Source: a plasmid. From it: 64,000 nucleotides of DNA. Where the stretch lies: sequence record NZ_CP047975.1; one strand, 5' to 3'. The position numbers are program-made. Below are positions 9,001 through 12,000 of this stretch, piece after piece (position 1 is the stretch's first letter; the number at the start of each line of letters is the position of its first letter).

Positions 9001-12000
9001 TTGCTGAATTGAGTTCTGAGTTTGATGTTCATCAAAACCAAATTATTGACTGGAAAAATCAATTAATCTCAGCTTCCTCGCAAGCTTTCGATCAATCAAA
9101 AGCTCCATCAGAACCCCCCATTGATCTTAAAAAGTTACATGCAAAAATCGGTGAGCAGGCATTAGAAATTGATTTTTTAGAAGGTGTGTTGAAGAAACTG
9201 GGCCGCTTCAACCACAAAAGTTAATCGACGACTCACTTCAGATTTCAGTATCTAAGCAAGCTAAGCTGCTGAAAGTCTCCCGTGGTTGTTATTATTATCG
9301 CCCAAAACCTGTTAGCTCATCAGATCTGAAACTGATGCGGTGTATTGATGAATTACATATGCAATATCCTTTTGCAGGCAGCCGTATGATGCGTGATTTG
9401 TTGAATCGTCAAGGGCATCATATAGGACGACGTCATACACGTACTTTAATGAAGAAAATGGGTATTCAGGCGTTATATTGCAAACCAAATTTAAGCCAGG
9501 CGAATCAAGCTCACCGTAAATATCCATATCTGCTCTAAGGGTTGGCTATTCAGCGCAGTAATCAAGTGTGGTCTACGGATATAACGTATATCCCTATGGC
9601 AAAAGGCTTTGTTTATTTATGTGCTGTGATTGATTGGCATAGCCGCAAGGTACTTGCGCATAGGGTATCGATTAGTATGGAGGTGGATTTTTGTATTTCG
9701 GCTTTAAATGAAGCGATTGAAAAATATGGTCGACCTGAAATATTTAATACAGACCAAGGCAGCCAGTTTACCAGTGATGCATTTATTGATGTATTGAAAT
9801 CAAATGGCATTCAAATCAGTATGGATGGTAAAGGTCGATGGGTAGATAATGTGATGGTTGAACGATTATGGCGGAGCGTTAAATATGAAGAGGTGTATCT
9901 CAAAGCTTATAGCAGTGTCACAGATGCGAAAAAGCAATTAAGTGCATATTTTGAGTTTTATAATTTGAAACGACCTCATTCGAGTCTAGACAAAATGACA
10001 CCAAATGAGTTTTACTATGATCAGCTACCCCAACAAAACAAGGTGGCTTAACTAGAGCGGAATATCACTTATAAATACGCTTTTAGTTGTTCAAACAAGT
10101 GGGACCACCTCTATATCTCGATAGGTATAGTAGAGTGATATCTCGATAGGTATAGTGTTTTGCAGTTTAGAGGAGATATCGCGATGCATACGCGGAAGGC
10201 AATAACGGAGGCGCTTCAAAAACTCGGAGTCCAAACCGGTGACCTCTTGATGGTGCATGCCTCACTTAAAGCGATTGGTCCGGTCGAAGGAGGAGCGGAG
10301 ACGGTCGTTGCCGCGTTACGCTCCGCGGTTGGGCCGACTGGCACTGTGATGGGATACGCGTCGTGGGACCGATCACCCTACGAGGAGACTCTGAATGGCG
10401 CTCGGCTGGATGACGAAGCCCGCCGTACCTGGCTGCCGTTCGATCCCGCAACAGCCGGGACTTACCGTGGGTTCGGCCTGCTGAATCAATTTCTGGTTCA
10501 AGCCCCCGGCGCGCGGCGCAGCGCGCACCCCGATGCATCGATGGTCGCGGTTGGTCCGCTGGCTGAAACGCTGACGGAGCCTCACGAACTCGGTCACGCC
10601 TTGGGGGAAGGATCGCCCGTCGAGCGGTTCGTTCGCCTTGGCGGGAAGGCCCTGCTGTTGGGTGCGCCGCTAAACTCCGTTACCGCATTGCACTACGCCG
10701 AGGCGGTTGCCGATATCCCCAACAAACGGTGGGTGACGTATGAGATGCCGATGCTTGGAAGAGACGGTGAAGTCGCCTGGAAAACGGCATCGGATTACGA
10801 TTCAAACGGCATTCTCGATTGCTTTGCTATCGAAGGAAAGCCGGATGCGGTTGAAACTATAGCAAATGCTTACGTGAAGCTCGGTCGCCATCGAGAAGGT
10901 GTCGTGGGCTTTGCTCAGTGCTACCTGTTCGACGCGCAGGACATCGTGACGTTCGGCGTCACCTATCTTGAGAAGCATTTCGGAACCACTCCGATCGTGC
11001 CTCCGCACGAGGCCGTCGAGCGCTCTTGCGAGCCTTCAGGTTAGAGGCCGTCGACAATGATAATCTGGATCAACGGACCTTTCGGCGCCGGAAAGACGAC
11101 GCTCGCTAAGCGGCTGCGCGATCGGCGTTCCAAATCGCTGATCTTTGACCCCGAGGAAATCGGGTTCGTGGTGAAAGAAACGGTCCCCATGCCAGCGAGC
11201 GGAGACTATCAGGATCTCCCCTTGTGGAGGGGACTTACGATCGCGGCGGTCAGGGAGATTCGAAGGAATTACTCGCAGGACATCATCATCCCAATGACGC
11301 TCGTGCACCCGGACTATCTGACTGAGATACTCGACGGGGTAAGGCGGATCGACGATCAGCTGCTGCACATCTTTCTGACGCTCAACGAGGACCTATTGCG
11401 TCACCGGATCGCGAACCAGACCATGCATCCTGACCCGAATCGAAATGCGGAGATTCGAGAGTGGCGATTAGCGAATGTCGCCCGATGCTTGGCCGCAAGG
11501 GAACGGCTTCCATGCACAACCCGTGTTCTCGATAGTGGTGCACACACCAGCGATGAACTCGCAGCGATGGTGCTCGACGGAATCGATGGGCGCACCTGAT
11601 CGCCTTCGACGCCTGCGCAAAGCGTAGCGCGAGGGTGGCGGGCTCACGACCAAACGCCCAGAGGTCGATCATCGCAGGGATGTTTGGCTTTGTGGTGCGG
11701 ACGACGGGACTCGAACCCGTACTCTCACAGAGAAGCAGATTTTCGTACCACCTCGACTTTCGCCGCCGTCTGATGACGTTCGTGGTCTGGACTGTCCCTT
11801 CGCCATTGCCCGAAGGCTTTAGGCGCCGCCCGTCCAGTCTCTACACCTTCCCCCGAAGGGGCTTGGCTCGGGATTGGCTTAGGGTATTGCCCGTTAGCGT
11901 TCCCCGACTTTGAGCGGTTCTACTCCGCGGATTTCCCCGCGGGCACTCCAATTTTAAAGTCTGCTGCGTCTACCGATTTCGCCACGTCCGCCTTTTTTCG

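Follow-up and report, generated by a model that had tools for sequence, protein, structure and literature searches.

Positions 11693 to 11991 of a 64,000-nucleotide (nt) stretch of plasmid DNA (sequence record NZ_CP047975.1; this whole stretch is referred to as the window) carry on the minus strand a complete gene for tRNA-Leu(UAA) that is split by a group I intron. When the 213-nt insert is removed, the spliced product of 86 nt is called as tRNA-Leu(taa) by ARAGORN and shows a 7-bp acceptor stem, a 3-bp D-stem, a long variable arm, a T-arm and A73. This is the body of a class II tRNA-Leu with a UAA anticodon, and its anticodon loop CUU|AAAA is split between U34 and A35. An earlier note, made from the sequence alone, had described a minus-strand class II tRNA at this place and an insert between positions 34 and 35 of its anticodon loop. 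Its coordinates stand, and the position of the insert and the anticodon were confirmed. The two core motifs it had quoted are likewise present, GAGCCAAGCC at gene nt 123-132 and GGUGUAGAGACUGGACGGG at gene nt 145-163. In this gene numbering, which is used below, nt 35 (U35) is the last base of the 5' exon and corresponds to tRNA position U34, and G248 is the last base of the intron. Three details had to be corrected: the guanine-cytosine (GC) content of the 299-nt gene is 59.5% rather than about 62%, the spacer to the neighbouring tmrB gene measures 93 nt (11600-11692) rather than 94 bp, and the resistance gene on the far side of tmrB, given as aac(3)-IIa, is identical to RefSeq aac(3)-IId. 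The coordinates of all features are collected in Table 1.

Table 1. Features of the intron-bearing tRNA-Leu(UAA) gene and its surroundings (positions in the window).
Feature	Position	Strand	Evidence or remarks
Complete tRNA-Leu(UAA) gene with group I intron, 299 nt	11693-11991	minus	ARAGORN on spliced sequence
5' exon, 35 nt	11957-11991	minus	tRNA nt 1-34: acceptor 5' strand, D-arm, anticodon stem 5' strand, C32 U33 U34
Group I intron, 213 nt, terminal omega-G at 11744	11744-11956	minus	RF00028, covariation, independent covariance model
3' exon, 51 nt	11693-11743	minus	A35 A36, variable arm, T-arm, acceptor 3' strand, A73, encoded CCA
P1, exon end ACUU with internal guide GAGU	11945-11960	minus	U35.G44 wobble at the 5' splice site
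P2 hairpin, GAAA tetraloop	11925-11942	minus	Both-side changes in 7/7 pairs
P3 5' strand (11912-11917), J3/4 AAA, P4, P5, P6	11845-11917	minus	P4-P6 domain
P7 5' strand (11836-11841), J7/3, P3 3' strand (11826-11831)	11826-11841	minus	Pseudoknot; G-C pair of the predicted guanosine-binding site
P8 (11801-11825), J8/7, P7 3' strand (11789-11793)	11789-11825	minus	CCUAAA/AAUGG receptor-like internal loop in P8
P9 three-way junction: P9, P9a hairpin, P9b hairpin with GAAA tetraloop	11748-11785	minus	
Non-coding DNA upstream of the tRNA gene, about 157 nt	11992-12148	minus	Homologous to the putative island left end, L206 (78-81%) and L026
Decayed orphan 5' half of a second (resident, intron-less) tRNA-Leu gene	12149-12174	minus	
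aac(3)-IId	10184-11044	plus	Identical to WP_000557454.1
tmrB-like AAA-family ATPase, WP_000587837.1	11057-11599	plus	Neighbour of the tRNA gene
Spacer between convergent tmrB and tRNA genes, 93 nt	11600-11692		About 45% identity to L206, poorly conserved
Block probably captured from the end of an alphaproteobacterial island	10132-12174		Collinear with B. anthropi L206/L209

ARAGORN without its intron option called no tRNA in the 64-kb window. With the option it returned the exact bounds of the 299-nt gene, misplaced the intron and labelled the product 'tRNA-Stop'. The Rfam search at gathering thresholds gave no match at the tRNA/intron locus either. The covariance model RF00028, which the earlier note had named as a check on the intron, was thus negative at its gathering threshold; below the threshold, it aligned over its whole length to 11774-11966 on the minus strand (36.8 bits, E=1.3e-7 in a 901-nt E-value search). 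tRNAscan-SE has no design for group I introns (PMC8450103). Default tools therefore find nothing at this locus because of their design and because of the sub-threshold score. Eight chromosomal relatives of the gene (L004, L005, L026, L041, L052, L053, L083 and L206) were also below the Rfam gathering thresholds, and the RF00028 gathering threshold under-detects this clade of intron-bearing tRNA-Leu genes. RF00028 (50 bits) and RF00005 pass over the whole clade, and routine pipelines will report a 'missing' tRNA-Leu(UAA) or none.

A covariance model was built for the clade from 33 chromosomal homologues, with the window sequence left out. It gave a single match in the 64-kb window, at 11785-11923 on the minus strand (147 bits, E=1.3e-38). 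Furthermore, 34 full-length homologues of 68-95% identity were aligned and compared with a hand-derived structure comprising the tRNA stems, P1-P9 and the P3/P7 pseudoknot. The modelled partners pair in 94.7% of the cells of this alignment, as compared to 35-44% when they are slid by 1-3 columns, and none of 500 shuffles equalled any of the observed pairing measures. Compensatory change on both sides was seen in 47 of the 84 modelled pairs; P2, P3, P5, P6, P8, P9, P9a and P9b covary, and P4 and P7 are invariant. In the window sequence all 84 modelled pairs are standard pairs, and every invariant core position is kept.

The individual helices agree with this structure. Of the 34 homologues, 33 have the U.G pair at the 5' splice site, and the pair adjacent to it covaries (AU 17, UG 10, GU 3, CG 2). 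Compensatory changes occur in four of six pairs in P3, six of seven in P8, all four in P9a and three of four in P9b, and the distal pairs of P5 and P6 covary. The predicted guanosine-binding pair G153-C202 in P7, with the bulged A152, is invariant in all sequences aligned, as is the terminal G248 (omega-G). The P3-P7 pseudoknot core, whose absence the earlier note had held to count against an intron, forms in the window sequence, with P3 covarying and P7 invariant. Between the window and its four closest relatives, substitutions fall mainly in unpaired positions; relative to L026, a metagenome-assembled genome (MAG) of the Nitrobacteraceae, ten of the 13 substitutions are unpaired and no pair is broken. 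With the full-length alignment to RF00028, the covariation and the 147-bit match of the clade model, the identification of the 213-nt insert as a group I intron is secure, and the proposal of a tRNA-Leu(UAA) gene with such an intron is borne out. From its core, the intron is predicted to be of the IC type.

Since the catalytic core is intact, ribozyme activity of the plasmid copy is plausible. If the conserved anatomy is read in the light of the known group I pathway, the precursor RNA would fold into P1-P9, and an exogenous guanosine held at the invariant P7 G-C pair would attack after U35, within the U.G wobble of P1. The terminal G248 would next take over the same guanosine site, and the 5' exon would attack the 3' splice site, restoring the CUUAAAA loop and yielding the 86-nt tRNA with its encoded CCA. 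A plasmid copy that is a dead pseudogene, unable to fold, splice or be charged, appears quite unlikely to us. There is no known selection for the gene on plasmids, no promoter was called, and its -10-like element reads CATAGG. Of three relatives compared, L026 and L041 (a Novosphingobium MAG) have TATAGG, but the closest, L206 from Brucella anthropi, has CATAGG as well. A dead relic is difficult to reconcile, however, with 84 of 84 standard pairs and the complete set of invariant core positions, with exons identical to those of the B. anthropi copy and with a sequence that is essentially invariant across 1,316 plasmids.

The relatives of the gene were collected by a scan for the core string AAGGTGTAGAGACTNGACGG with one genome per species, which gave at least 120 matches. 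Among the matches listed, Alphaproteobacteria, Betaproteobacteria, Acidobacteriota, Nitrospirota, Chloroflexota and other phyla are represented, and tRNA-Leu(UAA) with an intron after nt 34 accounts for at least 48 of the 87 loci parsed. The anticodons were classified by a loop-constrained parse, and the remaining parsed loci include tRNA-CAU and tRNA-Arg genes. Over the 299-nt gene, the identity to B. anthropi L206 is 96.7%; among the matches listed, it is 95.0% to L026, 93.4% to L041, 89.7% to an unclassified proteobacterial MAG (L111) and 89.4% to Rhodovulum steppense (L005). The cyanobacterial or plastid type that the earlier note had assigned to the gene does not fit these relatives, since they are alphaproteobacterial at 89-97%. 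We thus regard it as extremely unlikely that the gene came from a cyanobacterium or plastid and that aac(3)-II had a cyanobacterial donor. The tRNA, the 34/35 site and the intron class are the same as in the Anabaena and plastid introns, as is generally known and as a recent survey also indicates (PMC13011429). Yet the close matches over 299 nt all belong to Alphaproteobacteria, in a scan whose pattern was not aimed at cyanobacterial introns, the flanks are collinear with B. anthropi, and homologues of AAC(3)-II and TmrB occur in Hyphomicrobiales.

The collinearity extends from 10132 to 12162 of the window and was found with the chromosome of Brucella (Ochrobactrum) anthropi GCA_008932875.1 (loci L206/L209). 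Both tRNA exons are 100% identical between the two and the intron 95.3%, followed by aac(3) with 81%, tmrB with 80%, the upstream non-coding DNA with 78-81% and the spacer with about 45%. The nearest named chromosomal homologues of AAC(3)-IId are those of Ensifer sp. B1-9 (86%) and B. anthropi (85%), and the nearest non-clinical TmrB homologues, at 80-88%, occur in Rhizobiaceae-type/Hyphomicrobiales contexts. In Ensifer sp. B1-9 (L205), a truncated copy of this tRNA, consisting of the last 44 intron nt and the 3' exon, comes after tmrB, and so it does in the Shinella/Ensifer-like contigs L141-143. Because the order is shared by B. anthropi, Ensifer sp. B1-9 and these contigs, the adjacency of tmrB and the tRNA gene is native rather than a plasmid artefact. 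The alternative that the tRNA was joined to tmrB on plasmids alone, by mosaicism mediated by insertion sequences (IS), and is therefore uninformative on the donor of aac(3)-II, is hardly credible: although the module is a mosaic with a Stutzerimonas-like DUF3883 gene and ISCfr1, and no clear homologue of the spacer at 11600-11692 was found, the B. anthropi chromosome shows the same order and orientation, and tmrB is accompanied by the truncated tRNA in Ensifer sp. B1-9 and the Shinella/Ensifer-like contigs. A Hyphomicrobiales rather than a cyanobacterial lineage of the aac(3)-II/tmrB pair is supported by these comparisons. The idea that the locus holds a clue to the aac(3) donor is thereby upheld, as the order aac(3)-tmrB-tRNA-Leu(intron) recurs in the B. 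anthropi chromosome. None of the genomes compared is the donor itself.

Several further searches touched on the donor. The exact TmrB protein was found in 25,365 assembly blocks, and the ten places listed were all resistance-module contexts flanked by IS elements or transposases. A first metagenome pattern scan for the donor gave no matches. In the second scan, of 50 contigs, the only copies of the module were 15 of the plasmid type, 34 contigs had no module match, and one contig carried an unrelated tRNA-Leu intron; the plasmid-type copies from metagenomes include a deletion variant (L192) and a IIe/IId recombinant (L170). In L170, the L131/AAC(3)-IIe type extends to about 11443 and the IId type begins at about 11512, and the tRNA-Leu intron gene is kept. 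The loci L131-L135 represent a second mobilised allele family, AAC(3)-IIe, with 96.5% DNA identity and without the tRNA, cut either 10 nt after tmrB, by an IS3-family element, or inside the 3' end of tmrB, by an IS91/ISCR element. As they are cut right at the tmrB end, these alleles are uninformative as a donor clue. In the Sinorhizobium-like metagenome contigs L123-L126, a different orphan piece, resembling the 3' exon of a class II tRNA-Leu (acceptor CGCCAGC), lies about 100 nt downstream of tmrB, at the position of the intron-bearing tRNA of the window.

The gene is widespread. The 501 nt around it are at least 99% identical in 1,316 of 1,322 matching PLSDB plasmids, and the 299-nt gene was reported as 100% identical in 1,322. 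The hosts of these plasmids include Escherichia, Klebsiella, Salmonella and Acinetobacter, and at least 80% of the query is covered in 1,243 of the 1,322 records (about 94%). The same stretch is present in 656 of 5,426 complete Escherichia coli genomes (12%), and the first 25 kb of the window are 100% identical to the Acinetobacter johnsonii plasmid pFAHZZU3567hy-2. The RefSeq annotation of the module lists aac(3)-IId, an 'AAA family ATPase' (tmrB), two small hypothetical proteins, a DUF3883 protein and ISCfr1, and contains no RNA feature. The module has been described as aacC2-tmrB-orf192-orf228-orf1182-ISCfr1, with no tRNA listed (PMC7096625). One of the hypothetical genes, orf192 (WP_000951934.1, 12081-12272, minus strand), overlaps the attL remnant and the non-coding DNA upstream of the tRNA, which B. 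anthropi and the Nitrobacteraceae MAG share; this annotated gene is probably spurious.

The right half of the module has a different affiliation. From 12574 onwards, the window matches Stutzerimonas contigs with 84-90% identity in the DUF3883 gene (ScoMcrA_N and NOV_C) and ISCfr1; one of these contigs (L136) shows 89.6% identity over 2.8 kb (12574-15360) with the same DUF3883-IS1182 adjacency. The module is thus a mosaic whose right half stems from a Stutzerimonas-like, gammaproteobacterial source. This rules out a single donor for the entire module. For 12175-12573, no homologue was found among the loci retrieved and compared. Because of this gap and of the Stutzerimonas-like right half, the alphaproteobacterial block is limited to about 2 kb (10132-12174). 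In Stutzerimonas, a gene for a 1,729-aa DEAD/UvrD helicase lies directly upstream of the DUF3883 gene, as a defence-like pair. At the left end of the GC-rich resistance block, fragments of IS3-family elements (8907-10051, 38-42% GC) adjoin. Relative to pCTX-M3, a 1-nt insertion at 14033 frameshifts the ISCfr1 transposase, so that its open reading frames are split into 13798-14175 and 14060-15196.

The non-coding DNA upstream of the tRNA gene holds a conserved promoter-like stretch, CTAGGTGC..(T/C)ATAGG, and beyond it lies the orphan 5' half of the second tRNA-Leu gene, which ends in the attachment (att) core CTTAAAA (12149-12155). The junction ...GGACTTAAAA|AGTCTTTT is the same in the window, L206 and L026. 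Orphan tRNA-Leu 5' halves of this kind stop just after the anticodon loop (...GGACTTAAAA) and lie on the same strand, upstream of the intron-bearing gene; at distances of 65-1500 bp they were seen in the window, in L206/L209 and in L004, L007, L026, L049, L052, L053, L079, L083 and L096. In four of these loci (L004, L052, L053 and L083), a tyrosine integrase of 420-470 aa is encoded between the orphan 5' half and the intron-bearing tRNA gene, and in five more loci this position is taken by C-terminal remnants of an integrase. The L004 integrase matches PF00589 with 31.7 bits, above the Pfam cut-off. In six loci the orphan and the neighbouring complete gene have different acceptor stems, so the complete gene is not the other half of the orphan.

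Both ends of such an arrangement were resolved in the B. anthropi chromosome. In L209, an orphan 5' half (11959-11997) and an orphan 3' half (624-670) lie 11,288 bp apart, each abutting CTTAAAA as a 7-nt direct repeat, and when joined they give a perfect 86-nt intron-less tRNA-Leu(UAA). The aac(3)-tmrB-tRNA block forms one end of this 11.3-kb insertion in the anticodon loop of the resident tRNA-Leu(UAA). Beyond the orphan 5' half lie ilvA and a DEAD-box helicase gene, which are core Brucella/Ochrobactrum genes, and an mscS-type channel gene is found past the other end. The genes inside the insertion, in the order IS21, cupin, AraC/DJ-1, extracytoplasmic function (ECF) sigma factor cluster, aac(3), tmrB and intron-bearing tRNA, are accessory, and the ECF sigma factor clusters with Sinorhizobium proteins. 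Overall, this anatomy looks like that of an integrative island which inserts in the anticodon loop of the resident tRNA-Leu(UAA) and brings a replacement gene with it. The intron-bearing tRNA is assigned the part of the replacement gene because the resident tRNA is split, because CTTAAAA repeats flank the insertion and because, in L004, L052, L053 and L083, the integrase lies between the orphan half and the complete gene. The island model is well supported for the B. anthropi-type lineage; generality is not claimed.

An ordinary chromosomal tRNA-Leu that happened to lie next to aac(3) and tmrB in the donor, with orphan halves that are unrelated debris and no island at all, would suit the roughly 80% of intron-bearing tRNA-Leu loci which have neither an orphan half nor an integrase, as well as L209 and the window, which both lack the integrase. 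We nevertheless consider this unlikely, in view of the perfect intron-less tRNA-Leu(UAA) halves and the 7-nt repeat that flank 11.3 kb, the core genes outside and accessory genes inside this segment, the integrase between orphan half and tRNA in at least four unrelated genomes, and the GGACTTAAAA|AGTCTTTT junction common to the window, L206 and L026. No orphan 3' halves were seen in the 8-kb integrase-bearing loci, and no repeat of the tRNA 3' end (a candidate attR) within the window. Integrases 49-53% identical to the tRNA-Leu-associated ones are encoded on Rhizobium and Asticcacaulis plasmids (L210, L211), where they adjoin 3' fragments of other tRNAs (Lys-UUU-like and CAU-like) without an intron. 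These loci were set aside as further examples, as they carry other tRNA fragments and no intron; the integrase family appears to target several tRNAs.

With respect to the island, we propose the following course of events. Alphaproteobacterial islands would insert at the CTTAAAA core of a resident, intron-less tRNA-Leu(UAA), with the intron-bearing tRNA as replacement gene at the integrase-proximal island end and aac(3)-II and tmrB as adjoining cargo. An island-end fragment of about 2 kb, comprising a partial orphan 5' half with the att core, tRNA-Leu(intron), tmrB and aac(3)-IId, would then have been taken up by insertion sequences into the aacC2-tmrB module. The tRNA gene is most likely a structurally intact passenger in the Acinetobacter and enterobacterial hosts where it is now found. 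That the tRNA or its intron is kept for a benefit, either as a supply of tRNA-Leu(UAA) for UUA/UUG codons or as a stable regulatory RNA, seems very unlikely. Its retention in about 94% of the records with the region would be in line with a benefit; on the other hand, physical linkage within an IS-bounded 2-kb block accounts for this retention, no expression signals were called, and other mobile aac(3)-II/tmrB alleles, which lost the tRNA to IS3 or ISCR insertions, did so without apparent cost.

Taken together, we regard it as probable that the window carries an intact, intron-split tRNA-Leu(UAA) gene which served as the replacement gene of an alphaproteobacterial island, had aac(3)-II and tmrB as neighbouring cargo and is now a passenger on plasmids. 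Several observations weigh against this account. The RF00028 score of 36.8 bits is below the gathering score of 50 bits, and the z-score of the minimum free energy is just -1.3, the folding giving local hairpins and no significance. Neither a sigma-70-type promoter nor an intrinsic terminator was called around the gene, using the E. coli sigma-70 consensus. The right half of the module, with DUF3883 and ISCfr1, is Stutzerimonas-like, and apart from other mobile alleles no relative closer than about 81% in aac(3)/tmrB was found. Neither the window nor L209 contains the integrase. L209 is also the sole island with both ends resolved; of the integrase-bearing examples, which come from 8-kb loci, just the left end is visible, and about 80% of 64 intron-bearing tRNA-Leu loci have no orphan half or integrase nearby.

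A more far-reaching idea is that the intron travels with a tyrosine-integrase island instead of with a homing endonuclease and shields the tRNA copy of the island by interrupting the CTT|AAAA core. We put this forward tentatively and hold it to be possible, though on balance doubtful. If true, the intron-bearing copy would be immune to the integrase and to recombination with attL/attR, and splicing would still give a functional tRNA. The ribozyme would thereby gain a selectable role, the patchy spread of such introns in Alphaproteobacteria, Acidobacteriota and other phyla would be explained, and aac(3)-II/tmrB would have come to clinical plasmids as island cargo.

The intron belongs to the known class of tRNA-Leu(UAA) introns at 34/35. 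What appears to be new is that it occurs, unannotated, in a resistance module of global spread, that it links aac(3)-II to a Hyphomicrobiales origin, and that the island combines a split resident tRNA with an integrase and a replacement tRNA that bears the intron. In the searchable literature, no link of tmrB or aacC2 with a tRNA or intron was found, nor one of group I introns with tRNA-targeting integrases, and a 2021 catalogue of origins lists no aac(3) gene (PMC7782503). Since neither tRNAscan-type tools nor Rfam thresholds pick it up, a predicted self-splicing ribozyme gene has been overlooked in a gentamicin-resistance module that ranks among the commonest. The results also give a concrete lead on the origin of aac(3)-II, which may have been cargo of a tRNA-Leu-targeting island in Hyphomicrobiales (relatives of Ensifer, Shinella or Ochrobactrum), and the island architecture could account for the spread of the intron without a homing endonuclease.

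Among known systems, the intron of the cyanobacterial and plastid pre-tRNA-Leu(UAA), as in Anabaena/Nostoc PCC 7120, shares with the window intron the host tRNA, the U34/A35 site, an IC-type core, the small size and the lack of an internal open reading frame. Splicing of the cyanobacterial and plastid intron depends on exon pairing in the anticodon stem, and in the clade of the window intron this pairing is conserved and covarying. Unlike the Anabaena/Nostoc gene, the gene of the window is of alphaproteobacterial lineage, GC-rich (60%) and located on an integrative island and then on resistance plasmids. The IC3 intron in the pre-tRNA-Ile(CAU) of Azoarcus sp. BH72 is likewise compact (about 200 nt) and GC-rich; its L2 and L9 are GAAA tetraloops, its P8 and P5 carry receptor-like motifs, and its J6/7-P7-J7/3 string (GGUGUAGAGACU.GACGG) is near-identical, but it resides in a different tRNA and at a different site, 3' of the anticodon. 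The L2/L9 GAAA tetraloops and the receptor-like P8/P5 motifs are present in the window sequence itself, and the likeness to IC3 is tentative. The Azoarcus sequence used for comparison is 75% identical to the window intron over a 64-nt core only, as compared to 82% over the full length to betaproteobacterial tRNA-CAU introns. By this measure, the window intron would form a lineage separate from the Azoarcus intron.

A 2026 survey covers 333 intron-bearing tRNAs from 18 phyla, in which the introns of Pseudomonadota lie mainly at 33/34, 34/35 and 36/37, and it already reports tRNA-Leu introns at 34/35 in Pseudomonadota (PMC13011429). The population surveyed includes the type of the window intron; the main text mentions no plasmid copies, no linkage to resistance genes and no context of integrases or split tRNAs. 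The aacC2-tmrB region of pCTX-M3 and pEl1573 is the same module as that described here, positions 10150-15824 of the window being 99.95% identical to the pCTX-M3 module over 5.7 kb, but the published descriptions and RefSeq list no tRNA or intron between tmrB and orf192. In IStrons, a group I intron is fused to an IS200/IS605-type transposase (Tourasse et al. 2014, as cited in PMC13386836). The likeness lies in a group I ribozyme that is physically tied to a DNA mobile element. In IStrons, the ribozyme splices the element from host transcripts, whereas here the intron interrupts a tRNA gene carried as cargo, and a tyrosine integrase, encoded separately, is the recombinase. With the tRNA-targeting islands that carry tyrosine integrases, finally, the arrangement described here shares the insertion in the anticodon loop and the short direct repeat, as well as, in L004, L052, L053 and L083, the integrase beside the att site. 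Classical islands regenerate the tRNA gene through a 3' part in attP, whereas here the resident gene stays split and the island brings a separate, complete tRNA-Leu(UAA) gene with an intron-interrupted anticodon loop. This context may represent a new variant of tRNA-targeting islands.

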